A DNA stretch of 64,000 nucleotides from Terriglobia bacterium (GCA_965198225.1 CBDAOY010000006.1:672001-736000); one strand, 5' to 3'. Shown: positions 2,715-64,000, counted from the stretch's first letter. Numbers and translations are program-made. The notes: generated by a model not told the origin, from the sequence alone.

Positions 2715-3752
2715 TTAGACCGTCGCTGTCAGCCGTCTCTCAGCTCCGGTTTGCCACATCAGATCGTCGACCGCCTGCTCGGCCTGCTCGATCGAAATCG
2801 ACTCGATGCAGAGCGGGCTCTCTGCGACCAGACATTCGTAACCCGGGCACGGGTTGCATTCGAACGGGTTCTGGACAACTCGGTGCGGAACGCCCCAGGG
2901 ACGCCACCGAACCGAATCGGACGAACCCCAGAGGGCTACGGTGGGAGTACCCACCGCTGCTGCCAGATGCATGGGACCGGAGTCGTTACCGATGTAGAGT
3001 CCGGCTCCGCGGATCAACTCCGCCAGCTCCACGATCGAGAGACCTAACAAGATCACGCTGTTGGCCAGTTTCCTCGCAATGTCGCCGACGACGGACTCCT
3101 CGCCCGGCCCGCAGGTGAGGACGACACACCATCCACGGTAGGCAATCGTCCGACCCAACTCGGCGAAACCGTGGATGCTCCAGCGCTTCGTGTCCATCAA
3201 GGCGCCGGGATGAATTACGACGTAGGGTCGTCCGCGGAGGGCCTGGTGTACATGACTGTCCTTGTCCGGATGAGTCTCGTAGTACAGCGGCGGCGCGGTC
3301 TGGGCGCGCACACCGAGCCAGCGGAACCACTCCATTGTCGTTTCCACCGTATGCATCCGTGCTTTGGGCCGTGGCATCAACCCGCCGTACAGTCTCCGGT
3401 ATTGGTAGTCTTCGACGCCGATGCGGCTTCCCCAGGTGGCGAGGCAGTACACGAGGCTGGTCGGACCGCCGTGAAGGTTGATGATGGCGTTGAATCGGCG
3501 CAAGAACAGCCGGACGACCGTTGTGTATTTCTCTTTGCTGGTTGTCAAGATCTCCGAGACATCCCGGTTGCCGTCAAAGCAGTCGGCGAAACGGGGTTCG
3601 ACGAGGACGGAAATACGAAAGCCTGGGAATTCCTGTTTGAGCGCCCGGATCGGACCTGTCAACAGCAGGCAGTCGCCCATCGAGCGGAGTCGCACCAGCA
3701 GGATTCGGGCGTTAGATGGAAGCTTGTGGAAGAGGTCCTTGGTGGGCCGCAC
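2715..3752 (-). CDS. glycosyltransferase family 9 (LPS heptosyltransferase-like)
   Basis: ILLVRLRSMGD, HPGA...KRW and IGNDSGPMHLAAAVG motifs; adjacent to heptose kinase. Confidence 0.9.
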   Translation of the reverse strand: MRPTKDLFHKLPSNARILLVRLRSMGDCLLLTGPIRALKQEFPGFRISVLVEPRFADCFDGNRDVSEILTTSKEKYTTVVRLFLRRFNAIINLHGGPTSLVYCLATWGSRIGVEDYQYRRLYGGLMPRPKARMHTVETTMEWFRWLGVRAQTAPPLYYETHPDKDSHVHQALRGRPYVVIHPGALMDTKRWSIHGFAELGRTIAYRGWCVVLTCGPGEESVVGDIARKLANSVILLGLSIVELAELIRGAGLYIGNDSGPMHLAAAVGTPTVALWGSSDSVRWRPWGVPHRVVQNPFECNPCPGYECLVAESPLCIESISIEQAEQAVDDLMWQTGAERRLTATV

Positions 3753-3922
3753 TACTCCTCGATCGTTGCTTCGCTTACGAGCATCACCGGTATATCGTCA
3801 CGAATCGGGTAAACCCGGTTGCACTCGCTGCACTTCAAACCCTGGTCATCGTCGACCAGGGTCAGGGATGCCTTGCACAGTGGACATACCAGAATCTTCA
3901 GTAGCTCCGGATTCACTGCCAT
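3752..3922 (-). CDS. Trm112/YcaR-family small zinc-ribbon protein (56 aa, absent from the ORF track)
   Basis: Hand translation MAVNPELLKILVCPLCKASLTLVDDDQGLKCSECNRVYPIRDDIPVMLVSEATIEE; its stop overlaps the GT9 start. Confidence 0.9.
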   Translation of the reverse strand: MAVNPELLKILVCPLCKASLTLVDDDQGLKCSECNRVYPIRDDIPVMLVSEATIEE

Positions 3923-3979
3923 AACTCGTCGATGGTATCAGGGGAAGTAGTCAGTTGTCAGTAGTCAGTGGAGCCACCC

Positions 3980-4143
3980 AAGACTCCCCTCCTCAGATGA
4001 GGAGGGGTGGCGCGAAGCGCCGGGGTGGTGCTGATCAAGAAAATTCCGACAATCCTGGAGCAGCCAAGCAGGACCCATCAAACAAACCACCCCGTCTGCG
4101 CCTTCGGCGCATCCACCCCTCCTCAACCAAGGAGGGGAGTCTT
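3980..4143. repeat. palindromic intergenic repeat with 14-bp terminal inverted repeats
   Basis: AAGACTCCCCTCCT...AGGAGGGGAGTCTT, with internal CCCCTCCTCA..GAGGAGGGG hairpins at both ends. Confidence 0.7.
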
Positions 4144-4218
4144 AGGGTCCCGGGTTTAACTGACTACAGACGGCTGACTACTGCTAGCACGCCAAAGGGC
4201 GTGCTAGCATATCGCCCC

Positions 4219-5454
4219 ATGCCGAACGTGTCGCTCGCCTACGGTGATTCCGGCTTTTCCCTGCCTTTCGACTCAGATCACTTCAAGGTGATTGCGCCCG
4301 AAACTGAGTCCGCCCAATCCGTCGAAGAGCACCTGATCGATTCCCCCCCTCTATCGCAATGCGCGCGCGGGAAGCGTGTGCTCGTGATCGTGTCTGACCT
4401 GACCCGACCCACCGGGGCACGCGAGTTCCTGCCGGGCCTGTTGGCCCAACTCGATCGCGCTGCCAAGGTGCGTGTCCTCTTCGCGACCGGCCTGCATCGG
4501 CCTCTGAGCGACGAGGACAAGATGGCGATTGTGGGCAGCGACATCTTCGAATCGTACCCGATGCTCGATCATCACCCAGACGCCGGTAATGTCTACGTCG
4601 GAGACACGTCCCTGGGTAATCGGGTGGAGATCGATCGGCAGGTGTTGGAACACGAGTTCGTTGTTTTGACGGGGTCGATCGGGTTCCACTACTTTGCCGG
4701 CTTCTCGGGTGGCCGCAAGAGCCTGCTGCCGGGCGTGGCGTCGAAAGAGTCCATCCAGTTCAACCATCTGCTGGTGCTGAACCGGGAAGGTCCCGGACGC
4801 GATCCTGCCGTCGGCGTCGCGCGCCTCGACGGGAACCCTGTCCATGACGACATGGTCGAGGGAGCCGCACTGGCCGATCGGGAGCTGTTCCTCTACAACA
4901 CCATCCTGGATTCCGGGAAGGTGCGGAAGGCGTTCGCCGGACACTGGGTCGAGGCCCACCGGCGCGGTGCGGCCGACTACCTGGCCAACCACGGTGTGGA
5001 ACTCGAGCGGAAGCGGCAGCTGGCGATCGTCAGTTGCGGTGGATTCCCGCGGGACATCAACATGATCCAGGCCCACAAGGCACTCGAATTTGCCCAGTAT
5101 GCCGTCGAACCGGGCGGAACGATCGTATTGCTTGCCGAATGCAGGGAAGGTACGGGTCACCCGAGCTTCTATCCCTGGTTCAAGCACTCCGACCTCGAGG
5201 AGTTTGAGCGAACCTTGCGCGCGAACTACGAGGTGTACGGTCAGACGGCCTATTCTCTGCTGTCGAAAGCCCGGCGGTTTCGCGTCGTCTGCGTCTCGCA
5301 GCTTCCGGACGAAGAGATCCGCGCGATGGGCATGGAACCTGCTCCCAACCTGGATGATGCGATGTCGATGGTCGATCCTCACGTCCGGAGCGAACCCGGG
5401 TATGTCCTGCCGTTTGGCGCCGATGTGCTTCCCGTAACCGCCGGCGACCGATAA
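4219..5454 (+). CDS. nickel-pincer-dependent lactate racemase family protein (LarA homolog)
   Basis: SDLTRPT, ATGLHR, FHYFAGFSGGRKS and GGFPRDINMIQAHKAL motifs; start at ATG 4219. Confidence 0.88.
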   Translation: MPNVSLAYGDSGFSLPFDSDHFKVIAPETESAQSVEEHLIDSPPLSQCARGKRVLVIVSDLTRPTGAREFLPGLLAQLDRAAKVRVLFATGLHRPLSDEDKMAIVGSDIFESYPMLDHHPDAGNVYVGDTSLGNRVEIDRQVLEHEFVVLTGSIGFHYFAGFSGGRKSLLPGVASKESIQFNHLLVLNREGPGRDPAVGVARLDGNPVHDDMVEGAALADRELFLYNTILDSGKVRKAFAGHWVEAHRRGAADYLANHGVELERKRQLAIVSCGGFPRDINMIQAHKALEFAQYAVEPGGTIVLLAECREGTGHPSFYPWFKHSDLEEFERTLRANYEVYGQTAYSLLSKARRFRVVCVSQLPDEEIRAMGMEPAPNLDDAMSMVDPHVRSEPGYVLPFGADVLPVTAGDR

Positions 5455-5546
5455 CTTCCGCGACAGTTTTTACATCCCTACGATGACTCCCCTGTAAACT
5501 CTTGTTTCCGAATGGAGTCCAAAATGGAATGGGGAGGTATGCGCAC

Positions 5547-6075
5547 ATGCGAGCTGCCAGCGGCTTGGTCCTGATCATCCTTTTAAACCTACCGATTCAT
5601 GCGACCACGGTGAAGCGTCTCGATCTCGACGGATTGGTCGCGATCGCCGACACCATCGTCGTTGGAGAGGTCCGCCGTTCGGAGATCTATTGGAGTGTCG
5701 ACGGGAGATTGATACTCACACGCCACACGATTCAGGTGGACGAGACCCTGAAAGGCTTTCCCGCGGGCACGGTTGAGGTCACTACCGTTGGCGGCACTAT
5801 CGGTGACCGGACTCTGTACGTGGCCGGTATGCCGGCGTTTGCCGACCGGGAACGAACGATTCTGTTCCTCGAGGCGGCGGGTTCCTACCGAACCGTGCCG
5901 GAACCAAAGGCGCAACGGAACTGTCGGGCTGGGTCAGGGGAAGTTCTCGGTCGCCGACGGTGTTATCTCGAACGATGTCAGCGAACTCCAGTTTGCGGAC
6001 GGTGAGCGCGGGGTAGCCACGCGGATGCGGTTGAGCGAGTTCAAGGACGAGATCCGGCAACGAGTCAATCGCTAG
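5547..6075 (+). pseudogene. secreted hypothetical protein split by a 28-nt insertion
   Basis: Signal peptide plus GGTIGD...VAGMP.F...LFL; removing 5897-5924 joins the two frames to read YRTVGLGQGKF. Confidence 0.65.
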
Positions 6076-6085
6076 AGGGACGGAC

Positions 6086-9000
6086 TTGAAGAGATACTGC
6101 CAACTGTTCGGCGTGCTGGGCCTGCTTTTGTGGTCGCATCCCGGGGCCGGCCACACCCGAATCACGGGCCTAACCGGGGCGATGCCGCGATGGACGGTAT
6201 CTCCGATTCCTTATTCGATAAACGACCGTGGGCTGGCGGAAATCCCGAACGAAAGCGAACTCATCGCAATCCAGGCGGCGTTCGATGCCTGGGCGGCGGT
6301 CGCCAGCGCGGACGTTCAGTTTGATTTCCGCGGCGCGACCCCGGATCGCAGCGTCGGTCTGGACGGTACCAACCTGATCACGTTTGCAGACGACAGTGGC
6401 CTGTTGGGATCGGCGACGTTGGCCGCAACCTTCTCCTTCTTCAGACGGAGCGGAGGAGAGCTGGTTTTCGAAGAATCCGACATCGCTTTCAACCCGAACC
6501 ACGAGTTTACGACCAGCGGCGAGTCGGGGCGGTTCGACATTCAAAGCGTGGTGACCCATGAAGCCGGGCACCTGCTGGGTCTGGACCACTCCGGCCTGGT
6601 CTCATCGGTCATGGGGCCGTTTGCCGTTCCCAATCAGACACACCAGCGTGTGCTCATGTATGACGATGTCGCCGGTATTACTCAGATCTATCCCGCTTCG
6701 GGCGCGCAGGACGTCGGTACGATCGCGGGCCGGGTCCAGGTGAACGGCGTCGACATTTTCGGCGCGCATGTCGTTGCAATAGACAGCAACGGCACACCGC
6801 TCGTGGGGGTGGCTACCAATAGAGGCGGCTCCTACAGCATTCCGCTCCTTCCACCGGGTGACTACCGCGTTTACGCTGAACCGCTCGATCGACCGGTGTC
6901 GAGCGCACAGCTTCCGAGTTTCTTTGCCGGCGTCATGACGGGCTTCGGTACCACCTACTACGGCGACGTTCGGCACCTGAGTGAAGCCACCGCGGTGACG
7001 GTCGTCGCCGGGGAAGCGTCCGCGGGGATCGACATACGCGCTGTGCCGCGAAGCGCGAACTCCTTTAACCTGACGCGACCCGTGTTCGCCCGTCGAATCC
7101 CGCGCGGGACCACGGAGACCCTGCGTGTCGGCGGGAACAACGTCGTGTCGGGCGCGACCTTCGAACCTTCGAGTTCCGGGGTCTTCCTCGATCTTGTGAC
7201 CTTCGGTGGGCGTCTCTCCAGGACGGCTCCCACGAGCGCCTCGATCGAAGTCGGGGTGTCGACCGACACGCCCCTCGGGCCGAAGAACATCACCGGGTTC
7301 CTGGAGGATGCGACATCCATCGTGAGCGGGGCGGTCGTGATCACCGAACAGGCGCCGGATGGGATCGATGTCTCTCCGGTCACGGCCTCATTCGAAGGCG
7401 GCGGGATCGCGACTATCACGGGGAGTGGTTTCCGGGTTGGTGTTTCTGTTTTCTTCGGAGGACTTCCAGCCCCGGACGTTGTTTTCCTGAACTCCGGTAT
7501 GTTGCAGGTCGGGATTCCCGAAAACGCACCCGGGCCCGTCAACATTCAGGTATTCAACTCCGACGGCACCTCCGGACTTCTCCCGGATGGTTTCAGTTAC
7601 ACGGCTCCACCGCCGACGATCTCCCTCGCGACACCTCTCATGGGCCCGCCGTCGACGCTCGTGACGATCGAGGGGGAAAACTTCGACGTGCGTCCCCGAA
7701 ACATCGCTGTGAATTTCAACGGGCAGTCCGGACGGATCATCAGCACTACCCGAACGCGGATTGAAACAGTTGTGCCGTTCGGCGCCACGAGCGGAACGCT
7801 CTCCCTTTCGGTGTTCGGCGTTACGGTTGACGGTCCTCAGTTTACGGTTACGGAGTCGGGTACGAGCACCAACATCGCTCCGGCCGCATTTCAGTTCGTC
7901 GATGCGACTCCCGCCGGAGGCGGCACGAATATCGTTTTTACGAACGCGGACGACGCGGTGCGCTTCATGAACCTCCCGTTCACGTTCAGCCTGTTCCGGG
8001 ACACGTTCATCGCGGGGAGCCGCATTTCGATCGCCACGAACGGATGGTTGAGCCTGGATGCGGCGTCGACGCCGGAATTCCAGAATGCTTCTTTGCCCGC
8101 GCAGACCGTCGAACGGCCGAGTGGAGGCGATGGTGTGATTCCGGCCGCGCTCATTGCCCCATTCTTCGACGATCTGACGTTCGCAGGCGGGGGCAGGGTC
8201 AGTTCGCTCCTCACTGGAAGCGTGGGGAGTCGCCGGTTCGTCGTCCAGTGGTCGAACGCGTCCATCCTGGATTCGGTGGGGAACGATCTAGGGGCCGACA
8301 TGACCTTCGAATTGATCCTCTTTGAAGGAAGCAATGACATCCAGTTCGTGTATCAGTCCATGACGGGAGAGCGATCCGACGGGTCGAGTGCGACTATCGG
8401 ACTGCAGAATCTCCAGCGTAGCGACGCCGTACAGGCCGGCTTCAACCAGGCAATCGTCGGAAACGGTGTCGCCATCACGTATCGGTTTGGCGGAGGCACG
8501 TACATTGAAGACGTAGGCAATCAGACGACCCCGACGGCCCCGACAGTCTCGGACGGGGGGGAGCGGATTCCGAACCGCGGCGAGTTGTTCGCATCCTGGT
8601 CGACGGATCCCGAGGCCTCGATCCGGCATTACGAGTATACCATCGGGACGACGCCCGGTGGTGTGGATGTTCGGCCGTTTACCGTAACAGAGAACAACTC
8701 CGTCGTCGTAAACGGACTGGTTCTGGATGAAGCTCAGACTTACTACTTCGCCGTGAAGGCTACGAGCTTGTTTGGACTCGCCAGCGAGGTCGGTTTGTCG
8801 GACGGCATTCGAGTGGACGCTTCGTTTGAACCGACGGTGCATATTTTCCCCTCCGTGCCTCATGACGGCGGGACCTTCGGTGGAATTGCCCTCCAGGCGA
8901 CGGCTGCCACCGACGTCGTCTTGCGGGCTATAGACATCGATGGGGCGTTAGCGCTGGGTCCAGGCATCCAAAACCCTGCCACGGCTCGCCTGGGACCGGG

Positions 9001-10066
9001 CGAACAGTGGGCGCGTTTGATACCGGAGATCTTCGGTTCAGATTCCTTCACAGGATGGTTCGAACTGGAAGCGTCCGACACCGATCTGAGGACCTACATG
9101 GCCACAGGAAGGACCGGCCTGGTACGGTTTGACGGCGCAAGCTCGGCCAGCCCTTCGAAGGATTTTTTCCTTTTCCACGAAGGCGCAAATGCGATCCTGA
9201 TCAACCCCGGCGCGCAATCGGTCACCGCCACGATCACCCGGCTGGCAACGCGTACGAGCCAACCGTTAGAGATCCCTGCCCGCTCCCGGAGGACGACGCC
9301 GCTGACCGGACCTGTGCGGATTACTTCACCGGACTCGATCGCGGGGGTCGAACACTTCGGTGCCGATGAAGACCTGGGGATAGGAGACGCGGTTCCGGCC
9401 CTGGGGCGGTGTGCGACCGGACTCGATCGCGGGGGTCGAACACTTGACGTGGGGCGGTCGACCCTGACGTTCCCTCATGCGGTCGTGGGTGGCGGGTATA
9501 CGTCGTGGATCGACTTGGCGAACCTGGCGGCGCATCCACTAACCGTTCAGGTGAGCTTCGCCGGATCGAGTAAGACCCTGCAGCTTGCCGGCGGGAACTC
9601 TACCCGTCTTTCCCTTGCGTCGTTCCTGGGTATCGCGGACGGCCAGATTCGGACCGACGCGGTGCGTATCGCGGCGAGTTCCTTTTTTGGTTCGTCAGCG
9701 CTCGTCGGCGTCATCGACATCGAGAGTGCCGGTTCGGTGGTCACGCTTGGGCCGGTCGAAGCGGCGACGGACATCCTGTTCCCGCACGTCGCTCAAGGCA
9801 ATGGGTTCTTTACCGGGATCGCGCTGGCTGCGGGGACCTCAGAAACGACGGTTACGGTCGAAGTGTTTCCGGCATCCGGAGCAACGCCGAAGACGGGAAC
9901 CGTCGTGGTGCCGGCGAGCGGCCAGATCGCCCGGCTCGTCAGCGAGCTCGTCCCCGAAGTAACCGAACAGAGCGGCGGCTACATCCGGTTGACCGCAGAC
10001 CAACCCGTTTGGGCCTGGGAGATTTATGGCACCGCATCCGCCATGGCGTCAGGCCCCCCGTTGTGA
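6086..10066 (+). CDS. secreted matrixin (M10)-type metalloprotease with carboxypeptidase-regulatory-like, IPT/TIG and FN3-like domains
   Basis: HEAGHLLGLDH zinc motif with Met-turn SVM; repeated IPT-like segments (ITGSGF, IEGENF). Confidence 0.8.
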   Translation: MKRYCQLFGVLGLLLWSHPGAGHTRITGLTGAMPRWTVSPIPYSINDRGLAEIPNESELIAIQAAFDAWAAVASADVQFDFRGATPDRSVGLDGTNLITFADDSGLLGSATLAATFSFFRRSGGELVFEESDIAFNPNHEFTTSGESGRFDIQSVVTHEAGHLLGLDHSGLVSSVMGPFAVPNQTHQRVLMYDDVAGITQIYPASGAQDVGTIAGRVQVNGVDIFGAHVVAIDSNGTPLVGVATNRGGSYSIPLLPPGDYRVYAEPLDRPVSSAQLPSFFAGVMTGFGTTYYGDVRHLSEATAVTVVAGEASAGIDIRAVPRSANSFNLTRPVFARRIPRGTTETLRVGGNNVVSGATFEPSSSGVFLDLVTFGGRLSRTAPTSASIEVGVSTDTPLGPKNITGFLEDATSIVSGAVVITEQAPDGIDVSPVTASFEGGGIATITGSGFRVGVSVFFGGLPAPDVVFLNSGMLQVGIPENAPGPVNIQVFNSDGTSGLLPDGFSYTAPPPTISLATPLMGPPSTLVTIEGENFDVRPRNIAVNFNGQSGRIISTTRTRIETVVPFGATSGTLSLSVFGVTVDGPQFTVTESGTSTNIAPAAFQFVDATPAGGGTNIVFTNADDAVRFMNLPFTFSLFRDTFIAGSRISIATNGWLSLDAASTPEFQNASLPAQTVERPSGGDGVIPAALIAPFFDDLTFAGGGRVSSLLTGSVGSRRFVVQWSNASILDSVGNDLGADMTFELILFEGSNDIQFVYQSMTGERSDGSSATIGLQNLQRSDAVQAGFNQAIVGNGVAITYRFGGGTYIEDVGNQTTPTAPTVSDGGERIPNRGELFASWSTDPEASIRHYEYTIGTTPGGVDVRPFTVTENNSVVVNGLVLDEAQTYYFAVKATSLFGLASEVGLSDGIRVDASFEPTVHIFPSVPHDGGTFGGIALQATAATDVVLRAIDIDGALALGPGIQNPATARLGPGEQWARLIPEIFGSDSFTGWFELEASDTDLRTYMATGRTGLVRFDGASSASPSKDFFLFHEGANAILINPGAQSVTATITRLATRTSQPLEIPARSRRTTPLTGPVRITSPDSIAGVEHFGADEDLGIGDAVPALGRCATGLDRGGRTLDVGRSTLTFPHAVVGGGYTSWIDLANLAAHPLTVQVSFAGSSKTLQLAGGNSTRLSLASFLGIADGQIRTDAVRIAASSFFGSSALVGVIDIESAGSVVTLGPVEAATDILFPHVAQGNGFFTGIALAAGTSETTVTVEVFPASGATPKTGTVVVPASGQIARLVSELVPEVTEQSGGYIRLTADQPVWAWEIYGTASAMASGPPL

Positions 10067-56692: not shown

Positions 56693-59062
56693 ATGCTACC
56701 GCGCATGAATCGAATCCGTCATCGAATGCTCGCGATCTTGCTGGTGAGCTCTTTTGTCTCGGTTCCAGGCTTTGCCCAACAGGTAGGCGCGCTCAGCGGG
56801 GCCGACTACGAGCGTGCCGAGCAGTTCCTCGGGTACAACACCAACCCGCTGGTGTTGCGTTCCGGCGTGCGCCCAAGCTGGCTCGAAGACGAGCGCTTCT
56901 GGTACCGCATCACGACAGGGCGCGGAGACGAGTTCATACTCATCGATCCGGCGGATGGAACGCGCGGACCCGCCTTCGATCATGCGCGCCTCGCGTCGGC
57001 CCTCTCCGAGGCCGCAGGCGAGAGCTATGAGGCCTTCGACCTTCCGTTTACCACGTTCGAATTCTCCGAAGCCGGCGGATCCGTCTCGTTTCGCGCCGCT
57101 GAGCGGAACTGGGAATGCGACCTCGAAGCGGGTCGTTGCGTCGAAGACGAAGCGGCCGGACGTTCCCGCGGGGGAAGCCGTGGAGGACGTGGCGGACGCG
57201 GAGGCGGGCCGCCTCCAAGCGTCGCCTCTCCGGACGGCAAGCGTGCAGTGTTCATTCGAGACTGGAATCTCTGGGTCCGGGAAGTTGAGGGCGGGGAAGA
57301 GACCCAACTGACCACCGATGGCATCGAAGACTACGGTTACGCTACCGACAACGCCGGATGGCGGAAGAGCGACCGACCGATCGTGGTGTGGTCCCCGGAT
57401 TCGAAGAAGGTCGCAACTTTTCAGCAGGACCAGCGCAACACGGGCGAGATGTACCTTGTCGACACCTCGGTAGGGCATCCTACCCTCCAGGCGTGGAAGT
57501 ACCCACTGCCTGGGGATGAGGAGATCACGATGATCGAACGGGTCGTCGTCGACGTCGAGAACCCGCGCGTGATCCGCTTCTTGATGGAACGCGATCAGCA
57601 CCGGTCCACGTTGTGTGACGACCTCCCGTGTCGCGGCAGTTGGCGCGATGTGCAGTGGAGCCCGGACAGTTCGGAAGTCGCCTTCGCTTCGACCTCGAGA
57701 GATCACAAGATCACCCGCCTTCGGGTCGCGGGTTCGTCGAGCGGCGAGGTGCGCGACGTTCTCGTCGAGACGGTCGAGACGTTCTTCGAGTCCGGAGACG
57801 GTGCCGTGAACTGGCACTTCCTGCCGGAGTCGAACGAAGTGATCTGGTTCTCTGAGCGCGACAACTGGGGTCACCTCTACCTCTATGATCTCGCGACCGG
57901 ACGCCTGAAGACCCCGATCACGCGCGGCGACGGCAACGTTACACAGGTGTTACGCGTCGACGAAGAAAACCGGATGATCTACTTCGTCGGCGTCGGCCGC
58001 GAAAGCGGACGCAATCCCTATTACCGCCATCTTTACCGCACGGGGTTTGACGGCGGCGACGCAGAGCTGCTTACAGAGGAGGATGCGGATCACAGCATCG
58101 CGGTCTCCCCTTCAGGACGGTTCTTCGTCGACAGCTTTTCGAAACCGGATGTCCCGGCGATCGCCGTGTTACGCGACGCCGATGGCGAACGGCTCATGAC
58201 CCTGGAGGAGGCAGACACAACCCGCCTGACGGCGACGGGTTGGAAGCCTCCGATTCCGTTTGTGGTCAAGGCACGTGACGGCGAGACCGATATCTACGGG
58301 ATGATGTTTCGGCCGACGAACTTCGACCCCAATCGAAAATACCCAATCATCAACAACATCTACCCGGGGCCCCAGTCGGGAAGCATCCGGGGCTGGAGCT
58401 TCTCCCCCGCGCGTGGGGACACCCAGGCGATCGCCGAGCTGGGTTTCATCGTGGTCCAGATCGATGGCATGGGAACTCCGGGTCGCTCGAAAGAGTTCCA
58501 CGAGGCCTACTACGGCGACATGGGCGACAACACGCTGCCCGACCAGGTGACCGGAATGCAACAGCTCGGAGAACGGTATTCCTGGATCGACATCGATCGT
58601 GCCGGAATCTACGGGCATTCCGGCGGCGGCTTCGCGACGAGCGGCGCCATGTTCCACTACCCCGACTTCTTCAAAGTCGGCGTGTCCCAGGCGGGGAACC
58701 ATGACAACCGCGTCTACGAGGACGACTGGGGGGAGAAGTGGCAGGGTCTCCTGACCCGCAACGAAGACGGTACCGACAGCTACGATAACCAGGCGAACCA
58801 GAACTTCGCGAAGAACCTCAAAGGCAAACTGCTGCTCGCCCACGGCACCCTCGACGACAACGTGCCCTACTACAGCACCCTGCTCGTCGTGGACGCGCTG
58901 ATCGAGGCCAACAAGGATTTCGATCTGATCCTGCTGCCGAACCGGCGGCACGGTTTCGGGAACGAGCCCTACATGATGCGACGCCGTTGGGACTACTTCG
59001 TCGAGCACCTCATGGGTGCCCAACCGCCCGACGACTACGAGTTCAGCCCCCCGGTGAATTGA
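56693..59062 (+). CDS. S9 family dipeptidyl-peptidase IV-like protein
   Basis: DPP-IV N-terminal propeller, YPGP, GHSGGG nucleophile, HGTLDDNV, catalytic His. Confidence 0.92.
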   Translation: MLPRMNRIRHRMLAILLVSSFVSVPGFAQQVGALSGADYERAEQFLGYNTNPLVLRSGVRPSWLEDERFWYRITTGRGDEFILIDPADGTRGPAFDHARLASALSEAAGESYEAFDLPFTTFEFSEAGGSVSFRAAERNWECDLEAGRCVEDEAAGRSRGGSRGGRGGRGGGPPPSVASPDGKRAVFIRDWNLWVREVEGGEETQLTTDGIEDYGYATDNAGWRKSDRPIVVWSPDSKKVATFQQDQRNTGEMYLVDTSVGHPTLQAWKYPLPGDEEITMIERVVVDVENPRVIRFLMERDQHRSTLCDDLPCRGSWRDVQWSPDSSEVAFASTSRDHKITRLRVAGSSSGEVRDVLVETVETFFESGDGAVNWHFLPESNEVIWFSERDNWGHLYLYDLATGRLKTPITRGDGNVTQVLRVDEENRMIYFVGVGRESGRNPYYRHLYRTGFDGGDAELLTEEDADHSIAVSPSGRFFVDSFSKPDVPAIAVLRDADGERLMTLEEADTTRLTATGWKPPIPFVVKARDGETDIYGMMFRPTNFDPNRKYPIINNIYPGPQSGSIRGWSFSPARGDTQAIAELGFIVVQIDGMGTPGRSKEFHEAYYGDMGDNTLPDQVTGMQQLGERYSWIDIDRAGIYGHSGGGFATSGAMFHYPDFFKVGVSQAGNHDNRVYEDDWGEKWQGLLTRNEDGTDSYDNQANQNFAKNLKGKLLLAHGTLDDNVPYYSTLLVVDALIEANKDFDLILLPNRRHGFGNEPYMMRRRWDYFVEHLMGAQPPDDYEFSPPVN

Positions 59063-59267
59063 GTCCAGATTCTCAACGATAGGACTGGCAGGCTGCTGAA
59101 AAACTCAGTCTTTCGGCAGTCTGCGGCGATGCTGAGAAAAGCCATGGAAGGCTTTTTCAGCATCCTAACTAGTCGCCTGATGAGAGTCATTAGTGGCAAA
59201 CACGGGTGAAGGCCCGTGATAAATTTTAGCTGCTAAAGGGGATTCCGCTTCTAATCTAAGTTAAGCC

Positions 59268-60629
59268 ATGCCCTACGTACCCGGATTCGACTACGACATC
59301 TTCGTCAGCTATGCGGCGGGCGACAACGATCAGGGAGTCGTGGAGCAGTTTGTCGCCACGTTAGAAAAGCAGATCTCCGACAATCTGGTAAACGCTTTCT
59401 CGAAGGAGAAAGTCCGGATCTACTTTGACCGCCAGCGGTTGGGCACTCCAGCCGGCGTCAATTGGGAGGAGCACCTGAAGGCGGCGGCGTCTTCTTCGGC
59501 CATTCTGGTTCCGTTGCTGTCGCCGAACTACCTGAGCTCCCATTACTGCAGCAAGGAGCGGGCCTGGTTCGGCACGCAACCGCATGTGGCCCAGGGTTGT
59601 CCATACGCGGTGGCGGGCTGGGTCCCCATTGGCGAGCATCCGCAACCCCGGGAGCTTGAAAAGGCCCAGCGGCATCCGGCCGGGGATTCGTGGCTGGCTC
59701 TGGCGCCGCCCGAAGATCGGCTCGAAAGCTGCAACGAATTTGCCCTCAAGTTGCGCGACGCCCTCGTGGAGATGCGGGCATCGGTAAGCGCCGTGTTCCT
59801 GGGCCCGGCCGCCGAGGGCCGCGGGGCGGCAGTGCGCAGCCGCCTCCGGGATGAGCTCGAGGTATCCGGTCACCGTGTCGTGCCGGTCCCCGACTTCGTG
59901 TACGAAAACGCCGAGGCAGTGCGAGCCGACCTGAATTCGTCGTTGCTTGCGATCCATTTCCCGGGCGATGGCCTGGATCTGGAAGGACTGATGGCCATCG
60001 AAGAGTCCTTCACGTCGGCGCCGAAGACGCTGCTCGTTCAACCCATCGGTTCCGCCCTATCCGACGACGAAGCCGCTCTGCTCGAAGAGATCGATGCCGG
60101 GTTGGTCCGTGGCGGACGCTTCGCTGGAGCGGCGTATTCCAGGTTCGCCGGCAAGAGCGACGATCAGATCTGGGAAGTGGTTCGCCGGGAGGTGCGGGCG
60201 GCCCGGTTCCAGAAAAACAAGAGCGAGTTTGCCGTGGGTATCGCGTGCGAGGCGGGCGATCTTTCCGGTGCGAAGGCCTTGGCGGCGCTCATCGGTGAAT
60301 TGGGCGTGCCGACACGGTATCCGTCGTTTGAAACCGCCACAAGCATCACCGAGAAGTTGAAGGCGCTGCGTGACACCATCACGGAGAGCCCGGCGCTGAT
60401 CTGTTACTGGGCGGCGTCGGCCGGGACCGGTCTCGAAAAGCGGCTGGCGCAGGATGCCCGCCGCCGGTACAAGGCCAGGGCCTGGTATCTGGGTCCGCCC
60501 CTGGATGCTCCGGCCAAAACGAATTTCACCCGGACGAACGAATTGGTCCTCCGCCAGGCGGCGGACACCGCGGATCTGACCGTGCTGGAACCATTCCTCC
60601 GGGAGTTGGGTTGGGAGCCCAAGGCATGA
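59268..60629 (+). CDS. TIR-domain protein
   Basis: YDIFVSYA, IYFD, SAILVPLLSPNYLSS.YC.KE (TIR catalytic Glu position); stop overlaps the next start (ATGA). Confidence 0.85.
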   Translation: MPYVPGFDYDIFVSYAAGDNDQGVVEQFVATLEKQISDNLVNAFSKEKVRIYFDRQRLGTPAGVNWEEHLKAAASSSAILVPLLSPNYLSSHYCSKERAWFGTQPHVAQGCPYAVAGWVPIGEHPQPRELEKAQRHPAGDSWLALAPPEDRLESCNEFALKLRDALVEMRASVSAVFLGPAAEGRGAAVRSRLRDELEVSGHRVVPVPDFVYENAEAVRADLNSSLLAIHFPGDGLDLEGLMAIEESFTSAPKTLLVQPIGSALSDDEAALLEEIDAGLVRGGRFAGAAYSRFAGKSDDQIWEVVRREVRAARFQKNKSEFAVGIACEAGDLSGAKALAALIGELGVPTRYPSFETATSITEKLKALRDTITESPALICYWAASAGTGLEKRLAQDARRRYKARAWYLGPPLDAPAKTNFTRTNELVLRQAADTADLTVLEPFLRELGWEPKA

Positions 60630-62507
60630 CGCCGAGCGCGATCCCACATAATCCTTACCCGGGCCTTCGTCCGTTCAAGCCGGAAGAGTCGACCCTCTTT
60701 TTTGGCCGCGACGAGCAGATCGGCGAAGCGCTGGACCGGCTGATGCGGCAGAAGCTGCTGGCCGTGGTGGGTGTGTCGGGCTGTGGCAAGAGCTCGCTGG
60801 TCACCGCGGGTATGGTGCCGGCGCTCGAGATGGGTCTGGCGGGCGACCCGGCTCAGCAGTGGCGGATCGAGATCATGCGGCCCGGCGACGGTCCGTTACG
60901 CGAACTGGAACGCTGTCTGGGCTTTGACAGCGGGCCGCTGGTCGAGCGGACCTATGGCCTCCGGGAGGCTGTGAAAGCGAATCTGCCGGAGGCCCAGAAC
61001 CTGCTGCTGGTTGTGGATCAGTTCGAGGAGATCTTCCCCTTTCGCGATCGTATGCGGGAAGGCGGAGGCACCGAGGCCGATCTCTTCGTCAGTTACATGC
61101 TGAGCGCCGCGCAACAGCCGGCCGCCCGGATCTACATCATTCTCACCATGCGGTCGGACTACCTGGGTGAATGCGCCAGGTTCCATGGACTCCCAGAGGC
61201 CCTGAACGACGGCCAGTATCTGGTGCCGCGCATGACGCGTTCGCAGTTGCAGGAGGCGATCGAGAACCCGCTGGGGGGGGATCGAGAGCGCCGACGGCGA
61301 GTCGGTCGAGTTCCATCCGGGTCTGGTCCAGAAGCTGCTGAACGACTGCGACGAAGAACCCGACAACCTTCCGCTGCTGCAGCATCTGCTGCGCCGGTTG
61401 TTTGAACAGTGGCAGGATGCGGGCGCCCGAGGGCAGATCACGCCGGCGATGGCCAGGGACGTCGGAGAACTCGCCGACGCCCTCAACCAGGATGCGGACA
61501 CGGTTTTCAAGGCGCTTTCGACCGAGCGGCAGGGGATCGCGGAAGTGCTCTTCCGCCGGATTACGGAATCGCGCCAGCAGGCAGGCGGCGCCGAGGACGA
61601 ACGGCCCGTGCGGCGTCCGCAAACCGTCGCCCGTCTGGCAGAACTGGCGCAAGTACCCGTGTCCGAGCTGCGCGCCGTGGTGGATCCCTTCGACGAGCGG
61701 GGGCTGCTGGTATTGCGGGCGACGGACGAAGGCGACAAGGTCGACCTCCCCCACGAGTGCCTATGCCCGAAGTGGAACCGGCTGCGGCAGTGGATCGAAG
61801 ACGAAGCGCAGGATGCCAAGGCTCTGCGCTTTCTTCGAGACTCGGTCGGCAAGAGCCACCTCACCGGCTCCGCCCTGGCGGAAGCGGTCGGCTGGCAGGA
61901 CGCGGGCCGGCTGAAGGCCGCCTGGGGCGAGCGCTACTTGAGCCGCGAAAGCGTCCGCGAGGTGGGTGCCTGGGTCACCGGGAGTCGGCGCAGGGCCCGG
62001 GCGACTCAAATCATCCTCGCCGTCGCAGCCGTCGCGGCCATCGTAGGCCTGGGAGGGATGGCCTACTACCAGACAGTGATCGCACAGCAACAGGAAGACC
62101 AACTGATCGCTCAGCAACAGCAGTTGTTCGATGCCGCGATCGTCGTCGACGACCAAACGACCCGGGAGGACCAAAAACATCTGTGGTGGATACGCTTTGA
62201 TAACAGTCGAGACCCTGACTACGGCTCGGACATCAACTGGGATGAAGCAATGGCGTACTGCGATCAGCTATCGCTGCTTGACTATCGAGGTTGGCGACTC
62301 CCGACGATCGACGAACTGGTAGCGATCTGGAACCCAGCCACTAGGTCCAGCCGCTTGCCAATGGCGACTCCCGTGTATGCGTGGAGTTCTGATTTGGAAG
62401 GGTCGGGCTCCGCGTGGCTCTTCTTCTTCCACGACGGCTACCGGCTCTCGAGCTCGGTCGTCTCCCCCTACTTCCGCGCCTTGTGCGTGCGCGTTCCGGA
62501 TGAATGA
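60626..62507 (+). CDS. DGR target: nSTAND1-like NTPase + TM helix + DUF1566/CLec-fold variable domain; +1 frameshift in G8 tract 61273-61280
   Basis: NPYPGLRPF..FFGRD, GVSGCGKSS, LLVVDQFEE, TMRSDY, PLLQH (restored with G7), HE.L...W.RL..W, TM IILAVAAVAAIVGLGG, NWDEA..YC..L....WRLPTI.EL, WSS, ALCVR. Confidence 0.88.
62398..62507 (+). repeat. DGR variable region (VR)
   Basis: Aligns to 63078-63191 with 18 substitutions at TR adenines, one non-A substitution and one 3-nt gap. Confidence 0.95.
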
Positions 62508-62568
62508 TGTGGGTGATTGGGTGATTTGATTATTTCTTTTGTGCAGTCGAACTGAAAAGGTTATCGCG

Positions 62569-62958
62569 ATGGCGCGCTACGAGCACCTGCCGATCTACAA
62601 ACGGACGCTGGACTTGCTGCTCTATTTCGAGAAGATCGTCCCGAAGTTCTCCCGCTACGACAAGTACACCATCGGTACCGACCTGAGAAACACGACGCGA
62701 TCCGTCCTGAAGTTGATTGTTCGCGCCAACAGCAGCCGGGACAAGCGGCCGGTGCTTGAGGAAATCCGCACCGAATTGGAGGAGCTGATGATTCTGGTGC
62801 GCGTGGCCAAAGAGGTCCGGGCGTTCGAGAATCTGAACTCCTATCAGTATTCTGCCGGCGAGATCATAGAGATCAGCCGGCAGAATGAGGGGTGGCTGAG
62901 AAGTCTGGAACGGAAACAACCAGAATCATCCTCTCGATCACAACCGGTAGAGAGATGA
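62569..62958 (+). CDS. avd: DGR accessory variability determinant (Avd, four-helix bundle)
   Basis: LPIYK...DL......F.R..KYTIG..LR...EI.RQ..GW; lies between VR and TR. Confidence 0.88.
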   Translation: MARYEHLPIYKRTLDLLLYFEKIVPKFSRYDKYTIGTDLRNTTRSVLKLIVRANSSRDKRPVLEEIRTELEELMILVRVAKEVRAFENLNSYQYSAGEIIEISRQNEGWLRSLERKQPESSSRSQPVER

Positions 62959-63077
62959 GCGTGTTGACTTCATCATTCTGAGTCCTTCCCGCCCATGTGG
63001 CATATGCATTCAGGGCGTCCTACCTTCGGGCTGGGCGCCCGGTGGCCGGTCTTCGGATCGGACGAAGTGGAAGGATC

Positions 63078-63191
63078 AAGGGTCGGGCTCCGCGTGGAAC
63101 TTCAACTTCAACAACGGCAACCGGAACTCGAACCCGGTCGACAACCGCAACAACAACCGCGCCTTGTGCGTGCGCGTTCCGGAGAATGATG
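63078..63191 (+). ncRNA. DGR template region (TR)
   Basis: Copy of the VR with 11 AAC codons and one GAC at the variable positions; sits between avd and RT. Confidence 0.95.
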
Positions 63192-63599
63192 CGTTCCCTG
63201 TTTTCATTCGAAAAGATTCACGAAGCGTACCTGAGCTGCCGCAAAGGCAAGCGCCGGAGCCGCAATGCCCTTCTTTTCGAGGAGCGCCTGGAGGAGAATC
63301 TGTTTCGACTCTCGGGCGAGCTTCAGGCCCGGACTTATCAGCCATCCCCTTCGACCTGCTTCGTGACCGCGAAACCGAAACACCGGGAGATCTTCGCGGC
63401 CGAGTTTCGCGACCGCGTGGTGCACCACCTGATCGTCACCCACCTCGAACCCATCTGGGAACGGATCTTCATCCACGATTCCTACGCGTGCCGGCCCGGT
63501 AAGGAAACGCATCGGGCGGTGTTCCGACTGCAGGAATTCATGCGGCGTGCGACATCGAACGGGACAAGGACTGCGTATTTTCTCCAGGTCGATGTCCGA
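63186..63599 (+). pseudogene. DGR-type reverse transcriptase, N-terminal about 138 codons only
   Basis: Hand translation MMRSLFSFEKIHEAYLSCRKGKR...LEENL..L..EL..RTYQP...KPKHREIFAAEFRDRVVHH...IFIHDSYACRPGKETH.A...YFLQVDV; homology stops there and no YxDD motif follows. Confidence 0.85.
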
Positions 63600-63719
63600 C
63601 CCGGCTCGGCGCCACAGTGGTTCGTATCCGGATTCCGAACTTCGAGGTACTCGAAGGGCGTGAGAACGATGTCGCGGGTCAGAGACCGCGATGGCGGACA
63701 ATGCGCTGGACCCGACCGT

Positions 63720-64000
63720 TCATGGGCACCCGACGTCGATGCCCAAGTCAGCGAGTTCGGCCAACGAATCCGCGAGAGACAGCGGGGCCCCGTGAGTTGG
63801 GATGATCGTCAGCGGGACCGCGGAATTGCAGCTTGTATCGATGATGTCAAGGTCACGCAGGCCAGCAAAGAGCGACTCCGGGCCACCGAGGACCAGCGTC
63901 AGCCCAAACGCCGCGTTGTAAAGATCCGCCTCGTACACAAACACTTCCCCGCCGGTCTCGACAACAGTAATCAGCATGTCGTCGGCGTGTGGGTTGGCGC
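63720..64000 (-). CDS. 3' end of a probable metallo-beta-lactamase-fold protein (partial)
   Basis: NPHADDML...YEADLY...IIPTHG pattern; runs off the window edge. Confidence 0.55.
   Translation of the reverse strand, partial: ANPHADDMLITVVETGGEVFVYEADLYNAAFGLTLVLGGPESLFAGLRDLDIIDTSCNSAVPLTIIPTHGAPLSLADSLAELADLGIDVGCP

Follow-up and report, generated by a model that had tools for sequence, protein, structure and literature searches.

A probably inactivated TIR-nSTAND1 receptor module with the remnant of a diversity-generating retroelement in a Terriglobia genome

The 64,000-nt stretch of DNA analysed here, referred to as the window in the following, comes from a Terriglobia bacterium (GCA_965198225.1, CBDAOY010000006.1:672001-736000), and all locus coordinates are counted from its first letter. 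Its plus strand carries, one after the other, a gene for a TIR protein, a gene for an nSTAND1-type NTPase with a lectin-like C-terminal domain, and three parts of a diversity-generating retroelement (DGR): the gene for the accessory protein Avd, a template repeat (TR) and the start of a reverse transcriptase (RT) gene. In our best explanation of this locus, which we hold at a probability of roughly two in three, it harbours a conserved module of two genes that, when intact, would couple a variable sensor outside the cell to a cytoplasmic TIR effector, and that has become a relic in this genome. Because the reading frame of the STAND gene breaks at a run of eight guanines and the RT has lost its catalytic two-thirds, the receptor sequence appears to be frozen and is probably not made at full length; judged by its sequence, the system is most likely non-functional here. 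Of more interest as a lead is the wider family around it, in which STAND proteins combine an outside sensor with a multi-TIR partner.

The TIR protein and its STAND partner

The TIR gene (59268..60629, plus strand) is an intact open reading frame (ORF) of 453 codons. Its product matches the Pfam family TIR_2 above the cut-off (E 1e-9, 39.4 bits against 28), over residues 11-98 only, and contains the motif S91-x-x-C94-x-x-E97, which reads SSHYCSKE and includes the glutamate that the initial annotation had pointed out. In enzymatic TIR domains, the catalytic glutamate belongs to an S-x-W-C-x-x-E motif, and an invariant glutamate motif is a mark of TIRs that cleave NAD+. The protein belongs to a compact family: a search of 5.8 billion proteins returned 71 members at E <=0.001, mostly of about 450 residues and 48-87% identical. 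In an alignment of 27 full-length members, picked from these 71 across the identity range, conservation spans the full length, and S91, C94 and E97 are invariant in all 27. Judging from the motif and from this invariance, E97 is a candidate for the catalytic glutamate; it sits where the non-enzymatic TIR domain of MAL has a glutamine, following a shared cysteine, in a weak alignment (E 0.2). The family profile found no match among Protein Data Bank (PDB) sequences at E <=0.1.

The AlphaFold2 model of the protein (predicted local distance difference test, pLDDT, 82.5; predicted template modelling score 0.74) consists of three tandem TIR/flavodoxin-like alpha/beta domains. Domain 1 (residues 6-168), which bears the S91/C94/E97 motif, is a canonical TIR domain with a VIA-align Z score of 12.6 to the RPP1 TIR 5teb (root-mean-square deviation 3.2 Å over 138 residues) and further fold matches to SARM1, MyD88, SpbK and ThsB. 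Domain 2 (residues 172-313) resembles the TIR of IL-1RAcPb (Z 11.6), but also nucleoside deoxyribosyltransferase-type folds, and domain 3 (residues 317-453) the TIR of TIR-STING (Z 10.3) and related folds. Neither of these two has a TIR match in Pfam; domain 2 of distant TIR partners matches DUF4062 in three of ten cases, and the NCBIfam profile FxsC_Nterm stays below its cut-off on the window protein (41.3 bits against 130). Searched alone against 1.84 billion representatives, domains 2-3 gave 37 matches, the full-length ones of which hold them at about residues 170-450; within this single-sequence search they were always found behind the N-terminal ~170 residues and never behind another effector. 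The idea that domains 2-3 hide a ParA protein was rejected, as no ParA/MinD-type chain appeared in the top 50 of either fold search and no Pfam match was obtained.

The stop codon of the TIR gene and the start codon of the STAND gene overlap in the ATGA at 60626..60629 (plus strand; GGC ATG ACG in one frame, GCA TGA in the other), which can be read directly from the sequence as initially annotated. The relative P0073 and the partner protein of locus L020 start at the same MTP.. position. The STAND gene itself lies in two frames. Its 5' piece (60626..61405, plus strand, frame A) runs out of frame after about 61280 and ends at a stop codon at 61403-61405, and its 3' piece (61281..62507, plus strand, frame B) stays open for 408 codons. 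With one guanine fewer, the two combine to a protein of 218 + 408 = 626 residues, the repaired product assumed by the initial annotation, and its junction aligns without gaps to the intact relatives P0073 and P0074 (643 and 638 residues).

Both pieces match the Pfam family nSTAND1 (PF20703), the first over profile positions 1-200 (E 4.2e-53, 181.8 bits) and the second over positions 235-367 (E 2.1e-18, 67.6 bits), which a separate genome search extends to 200-367. The profile match begins with position 1 at residue 10 of the protein, and no N-terminal effector or adaptor domain was detected in it, the TIR domains being encoded in the separate gene. The Walker A motif GVSGCGKSS and the Walker B motif LLVVDQFEE, as well as TMRSDY, are present in the window protein and fall on columns that are invariant in 36 homologs. 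In the 3' piece, the C-terminal half of the nSTAND1 module is followed by a transmembrane (TM) helix, a glutamine-rich linker and a C-type-lectin-fold (CLec) domain. The TM segment (62010..62066, plus strand), the only one predicted by a hydrophobicity and flank-charge script, is the hydrophobic 19-mer IILAVAAVAAIVGLGGMAY with a mean Kyte-Doolittle value of 2.31. Since four lysines or arginines occur in the preceding 15 residues and none in the following 15, the positive-inside rule predicts an N-in/C-out orientation, with the NTPase in the cytoplasm and the lectin-like domain outside.

This ectodomain (62157..62492, plus strand) matches Lcl_C, formerly DUF1566, in Pfam (E 3.1e-13). Its AlphaFold2 model, built from a 22-row alignment, has a pLDDT of 87, and Foldseek ranks the C-terminal domain of Legionella Lcl first (8q4e, E 7.6e-5), ahead of C-type lectins; its sequence alone found no PDB match at E <=1. 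Together with the comparison of template and variable region described below, the Pfam and fold matches uphold the architecture proposed initially, namely an nSTAND1-like NTPase followed by a TM helix, a glutamine-rich stalk and a DUF1566/CLec domain that carries the variable region. An identity with EACC1 was discarded, since the respective paper presents EACC1 as a small single-TM domain associated with caspases, unlike the STAND protein here.

From the established behaviour of STAND NTPases and enzymatic TIR domains, we infer how an intact system might operate. The first gene would supply a cytoplasmic protein with one canonical, glutamate-bearing TIR domain and two TIR-like domains, and the second an nSTAND1 NTPase with a single membrane crossing and a variable C-terminal domain outside. 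Upon binding of a ligand by the diversified lectin tip outside the cell, a signal would pass via the TM helix and the linker to the NTPase. The membrane-anchored NTPase would then oligomerize in a nucleoside triphosphate-dependent manner and gather its multi-TIR partner, whose first TIR domain would cleave NAD+ or make a nucleotide signal, upon which the cell would arrest or die. The NAD+ depletion and the role in defence put forward in the initial annotation may apply to intact members. Binding between the two proteins is likewise presumed; a complex prediction for the natural pair of locus L017 (nSTAND1 residues 1-460 with the TIR protein, based on alignments), run without controls, scored 0.29 and 0.07, with the mark set at 0.32. 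The additional TIR-like domains may have a role in assembly, as proposed for inactive TIRs in related dyads in a 2026 preprint (bioRxiv 10.64898/2026.10.19.760177); this and the other publications discussed here are cited from parts of their content.

A conserved module with exchangeable, predicted outer domains

A scan for relatives of the TIR protein, using one genome per species, yielded 241 confirmed relatives, the best 80 of which were kept. In 18 of these loci, the sequence downstream of the TIR gene is too short for a judgement, so that 62 are informative. In 37 of the 62, an nSTAND1 gene starts 1.27-2.4 kb downstream of the TIR start, and the linkage is seen in 26 of the 28 best loci, the other two being unlinked (L029) or too short to judge (L040). 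The 25 unlinked loci are mostly Bacteroidota ones (largely Cytophagales, Cyclobacteriaceae) that match only the first ~90-100 residues of the TIR protein. According to their record titles, linked loci occur in Acidobacteriota, Bacteroidota, Gemmatimonadetes, Planctomycetes, Calditrichia, Peregrinibacteria and Proteobacteria, the last represented by Thauera, Hyphomicrobiaceae and Thiosymbion. On one metagenome contig (L098), TIR_2, nSTAND1 and Lcl_C are even fused in one chain of 792 residues. The TIR-STAND linkage that the initial annotation had expected among homologs is therefore real. A third conserved gene was not found in the flanks of 32 loci, where the largest shared neighbour group comprises four loci.

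We aligned 36 of the 37 partner proteins, dropping that of L083 (a 257-residue ORF). All 36 match nSTAND1, and all 36 have a strong hydrophobic segment directly after the NTPase module, which is the sole such segment in 31. Lysines and arginines are commoner before than after this segment in 35 partners, with a tie in L024, so that the predicted placement of the STAND module inside and the sensor outside, first suggested for the window protein, fits the positive-inside rule in nearly all partners aligned. Further domains vary from partner to partner: 16 of the 36 carry WD40 propellers, the partner in L020 ends in an FGE-sulfatase domain, and that in L019 has a weak pYEATS match. Homologous operons with swapped C-terminal sensors, also anticipated initially, thus exist.

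Several loci contain more than one copy. In L021, two successive TIR-nSTAND1 pairs lie in tandem (3387-9348), apparently through duplication, and at several Cyclobacteriaceae/Cytophagales loci two or three nSTAND1 paralogs stand in a row; the tandem loci are L021, L064, L078, L093 and L095.

The combination of nSTAND1 with Lcl_C is rare, accounting for five of the 29 matches to the C-terminal piece, the window's own protein included. A first metagenome scan with this single piece gave 72 pattern matches, none of which was confirmed; a second scan with an alignment gave 31 loci, mostly bare DUF1566 domains, and the contigs of P0073, P0074 and P0084 were absent among these 31. No TR/VR-like direct repeat of at least 40 nt was found in the available stretches of L020, L098 and L097, and the ORF that follows the target gene of L098 does not resemble Avd.

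Two further layouts were seen among these proteins. L099 (6725-8098, protein P0085) encodes nSTAND1-Lcl_C without the N-terminal P-loop half (profile positions 150-377), is flanked by unrelated metabolic genes and lacks both Avd and RT within 7 kb; possibly it is a similar relic. Moreover, 11 of the 29 matches to the C-terminal piece (P0083 and P0086-P0095) pair TIR_2/TIR with Lcl_C/DUF1566 and lack a STAND domain. In P0083, a charged coiled region and a single hydrophobic helix link an N-terminal TIR to two DUF1566 domains whose C-termini are VR-like, an arrangement that, by its sequence, reads as a Toll-like-receptor-style layout in bacteria.

STAND/NLR-type switches are normally thought to sense their ligands inside the cell. 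The constant position of the TM helix between NTPase and variable sensor suggests that bacteria also wire the STAND switch to sensors on the outside. More tentatively, and with distinctly less confidence than in our reading of the locus itself, we propose that the pair of a triple-TIR protein and an nSTAND1-TM-ectodomain protein constitutes a widespread, unnamed class of transmembrane NLR-like receptors, that in a small clade of Acidobacteriota its sensor has come under DGR hypermutation, and that the window copy was recently inactivated. If so, sensors outside the membrane (WD40, FGE-sulfatase, DUF1566 and others) would switch on a cytoplasmic STAND oligomer and a multi-TIR executioner, and bacteria would possess a counterpart of surface antigen receptors, in which a single TM helix joins a variable ectodomain to a cytoplasmic module for death signalling. 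Among bacterial systems, the members linked to a DGR would come closest to a hypervariable surface antigen receptor that is coupled to a TIR executioner. The copy in the window would illustrate the decay of such a system, through loss of the RT followed by a frozen variable region and a frameshift. It is a poor experimental subject, while the intact orthologous pairs (for example L017, L020, P0073 and the fused L098 protein) are directly testable.

The decayed retroelement and the frameshift

The variable region (VR; 62398..62502, plus strand) lies at the C-terminus of the lectin-fold target, and the TR (63078..63185, plus strand), which is rich in AAC codons, ends at the start codon of the RT. 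VR and TR differ by 18 substitutions, 17 of which are at TR adenines, and all 17 affect codon positions 1 or 2. With 27 adenines among the 108 bases of the TR, the binomial chance of finding at least 17 of 18 there is ~8e-10 by hand calculation. In addition, there is one mismatch at a base other than adenine (C>T), and the VR has a deletion of 3 nt, i.e. one codon. Because the substitutions fall almost entirely on TR adenines and because relatives vary among themselves at the same C-terminal VR columns, the sequences indicate that a DGR once rewrote the lectin tip at adenine-templated positions.

The Avd gene (62569..62958, plus strand) is intact. Its product matches the Pfam family bAvd (E 3.9e-13, 50.3 bits against a cut-off of 40), and also the NCBIfam model DivGenRetAVD (E 2.3e-15), although there its 56.8 bits stay under the cut-off of 80. 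In L097, a copy of Avd with 75% identity directly follows the relative's target gene.

By contrast, only the N-terminal ~137 residues of the RT (63186..63596, plus strand) are RT-like. They match RVT_1 in Pfam at positions 8-76 of 205 (E 0.0028) and the RT model of PADLOC at positions 30-126 of 263; past 63596 the translation is unrelated to RT, so that a complete RT with its catalytic domain is lacking and what is left is a remnant. The break is followed by a rearrangement scar (63602..63715) of three short amidase pieces in differing orientations, one being inverted relative to the others, which are 91-98% identical to a 537-residue amidase gene of the related genome G020. No second copy of 63560-63760, such as a repeat or mobile element would leave, was found in the genome. 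RVT_1 has 34 matches in this genome, several sets of which have identical scores and frames of 412-565 residues; these multi-copy sets look like group II intron-type RTs. The assembly, which is 97% complete, yielded no further RT of the DGR type, and a tblastn search with the stump reached at best 34% identity, at the multi-copy RVT_1 loci. The initial annotation had called the locus hypermutable, which does not hold for the present: its RT is a 137-residue stump, no second DGR-type RT was found, and all contigs of four sequencing runs from three studies agree in the VR as well as in the RT break. It had mentioned neither the truncation of the RT nor the deletion and the non-adenine mismatch in the VR, nor that the frameshift recurs from run to run.

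This frameshift lies at a run of eight guanines (G8; 61273..61280, plus strand), behind which the gene goes on in the +1 frame. The locus was found in six public runs from three studies, and the contigs of four of them, covering three samples, were compared (X1, X2, X4 and X6). In all four, a gap-free contig crosses G8 (X1 record 1, X2 record 9, X4 record 13 and X6 record 19), at a k-mer depth of about 5-13; over the 3.4 kb compared, there are zero or one differences and no indel is listed. The sequencing platforms of the runs are not on record, which leaves room for a systematic platform error. The protein database further contains a gene call of 352 residues (P0072, from a 2.78-Mb contig) whose start lies behind the break. 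Taken together, the frameshift is very probably real, and the gene probably does not encode, as initially supposed, a working receptor. It is probably also recent, judging from the sequence, because 408 codons stay open behind G8 and all family-invariant residues are kept.

A related observation concerns a 9563-bp contig from the European Nucleotide Archive (ENA; P0018 and P0084), a ~86% identical relative in which TIR and STAND are called as one 712-residue protein. P0018 has out-of-frame stretches at the end of its TIR part and after 'PLL' in its STAND part, which are either assembly errors or signs of independent decay of the same locus.

Some points weigh against our reading of the locus as a relic of a TIR-based defence receptor. 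Not only are 408 codons open after the frameshift, with the invariant STAND and CLec residues all kept, but the TIR gene and Avd are intact as well; the lesion may hence be recent, as we assume, or the gene may be rescued by slippage. Contigs drop rare variants, so that a minority population with seven guanines (G7) or a variant VR may exist, and the three samples may hold one strain, one of them perhaps being the source of the assembly. As regards function, no PADLOC profile names the pair as a known defence system, the matches to its 2023 library (PADLOC-DB 2.0) being at chance level (E 0.005-0.006), and the equivalence of E97 with the catalytic glutamate derives from motif and family invariance and not from a residue-level superposition.

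Some of these points would suit a system that still functions and uses G8 as an on/off switch, with slippage from G8 to G7, or transcriptional or ribosomal slippage, restoring the 626-residue receptor in some cells, while the VR is fixed at a useful specificity and the RT has become dispensable. We consider this unlikely. It is true that the break lies exactly in a homopolymer, that one base fewer gives a gap-free match to intact relatives, that the downstream codons are conserved as well as open, and that the TIR gene, its ATGA coupling and Avd have been preserved. However, every contig of the four runs shows G8 without any listed indel, and the RT was lost by a messy rearrangement and not by a clean deletion. 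Moreover, since the genome has 97 runs of at least eight G or C, G8 is nothing special, and since the corresponding site of relatives lacks a G run (PLEAI../PLKTI..), it is no conserved switch; a dedicated phase switch is thus possible, yet not indicated.

Slightly less likely still is that the module, in whatever state, is a surface-sensing signalling device, for kin, self/non-self or the state of the envelope, in which the TIR domains act as scaffolds or signal generators without killing, and not a means of suicide against invaders. The prediction places its sensors outside the cell, away from phage nucleic acids and most phage proteins, and two of the three TIR-like domains are without a TIR match in Pfam. 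DUF1566 targets of DGRs are otherwise surface or adhesion proteins (Wu et al., 2018; PMC5758913). On the other hand, the first TIR domain has retained the glutamate motif of NAD+-cleaving TIRs in every aligned member, and tandem paralogous pairs or partners along with swapped C-terminal domains are usual signs of conflict systems. Furthermore, nSTAND1-lectin systems have been assigned to immunity (Kaur et al., 2021, PMC8195603; Doré et al., 2024, PMC10907252).

Least probable is that the frameshift arose as an error of sequencing or assembly, in which case the living organism would have an intact receptor gene and lack only the DGR RT. Indels in homopolymers are what long-read assemblies get wrong most often, the contigs of this assembly are few (nine) and long, and the corresponding genes on the contig of P0018 contain several frame errors, but the independent contigs of the four runs all have eight guanines and no gap, and the gene call of P0072 is independent of them.

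Known relatives and genomic surroundings

The general kind of system, STAND-lectin DGR targets with TIR effectors and dyads with an upstream TIR, has already been published, and the initial suggestion that the arrangement may be undescribed was too strong, given the kindred systems in Wu et al. (2018), Kaur et al. (2021), Doré et al. (2024) and the 2026 preprint. The exact combination seen here was not found described in the literature searched, whose figures and supplements may contain it. What sets it apart is the separate triple-TIR gene without adaptor or ParA, the TM helix that is constant in the family, and the DUF1566-type VR.

Kaur, Iyer, Burroughs and Aravind (eLife 2021, PMC8195603) describe STAND-FGS systems, including nSTAND1, with TIR among the effectors and an associated RT and four-helix protein. 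Like the locus here, these have a central STAND NTPase and a C-terminal lectin fold diversified by a neighbouring RT and accessory protein, and in their two-gene form, STAND-FGS is encoded in one gene and TIR in the other, as in the window, where the RT is a remnant. In those systems, both genes share a bDLD3/EAD adaptor and the lectin is taken as an intracellular sensor, whereas no adaptor was detected here. Also unlike the systems in the portion of that paper considered, the window proteins have a TM helix between NTPase and lectin, two extra TIR-like domains, and DUF1566/Lcl_C instead of FGE-sulfatase.

Doré et al. (PNAS 2024, PMC10907252) report 'clade 5D' DGR targets of multicellular bacteria that combine CLec with nSTAND1 or NACHT, some also with TIR. 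As here, the VR lies in CLec and the nSTAND1 or NACHT module is central; some targets carry N-terminal TIR or peptidase effectors, and some have predicted TM segments that put CLec in the periplasm. They are read as hypermutated antigen sensors. It is common for their loci, which come from multicellular Chromatiales and cyanobacteria, to have two targets along with effectors fused in cis and intact RTs. Compared with what that paper presents in the part cited, the window locus has a single target and a TIR encoded by a gene of its own; its host is Acidobacteriota-like, and its RT is dead, with 137 remaining residues that are too short for a placement relative to 'clade 5D'.

The 2026 preprint (10.64898/2026.10.19.760177) deals with TIR-ParA/FxsC-type dyads, in which an upstream active TIR often comes with an extra inactive TIR (FxsC-C), and the downstream gene encodes an NTPase fused to nSTAND1/NACHT or to ligand binders (FGS, pYEATS), or a type-II single-TM receptor whose sensor lies outside. 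The sub-threshold FxsC_Nterm match of the window TIR and the weak pYEATS match of the L019 partner recall these dyads. However, the dyads carry ParA downstream, whereas ParA/CbiA-type Pfam families are absent from both window proteins at E <=0.1, as ParA-type families are from ten upstream partners at E <=0.01. Forms lacking ParA appear in the preprint only as direct TIR-STAND fusions, and its main text does not mention DGRs.

Among the DGR targets catalogued by Wu et al. (NAR 2018, PMC5758913) are combinations of a P-loop NTPase, a Toll-like domain and FGE-sulfatase, as well as DUF1566 targets among surface proteins. Legionella LdtA and the other targets of the DUF1566 class ('category d', CLec2) share with the window protein an outside-exposed VR domain of the DUF1566 type, and the ectodomain has its best fold match in the C-terminal domain of Legionella Lcl. 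In the part of that survey cited here, however, these targets are lipoproteins or adhesin-like and have no cytoplasmic NTPase or TIR partner, and the NTPase/Toll-like combinations (b7-b11) go with FGE-sulfatase VRs and not with DUF1566.

Finally, bacterial NLR-like antiviral STAND proteins such as Avs follow a sensor-switch-effector logic that ends in cell death or arrest; their sensors are cytoplasmic repeat domains and their effectors are fused in cis. The module resembles Avs in this tripartite logic and differs from it in both of these features, and it has no PADLOC match beyond chance.

On its left, the TIR-STAND-DGR block is directly preceded by an S9 peptidase gene (56693-59062), which is 72-73% conserved in three genomes of the same genus (G001-G003). 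On its right, an unrelated 570-residue gene on the minus strand begins after the rearrangement scar; it was looked for in related genomes and not found there. The block and this gene together (59268-65432) have no DNA match in G001-G003, and a search for an orthologous locus in 59 other genomes produced matches in only five, or six of 60 when the genome of the window is counted, all of them short fragments, and in none of the three same-genus genomes. Since the block is unmatched in these genomes while the upstream peptidase is conserved, it lies in a variable region. A scan of 58900-63800 for promoters and terminators gave counts not above those of shuffled sequence. Elsewhere on the same contig, two weaker nSTAND1-like matches (C6:959394-964380, minus strand; E 6e-7 and 8e-6) with open frames of 651 and 734 residues may represent further STAND-type genes of this genome.

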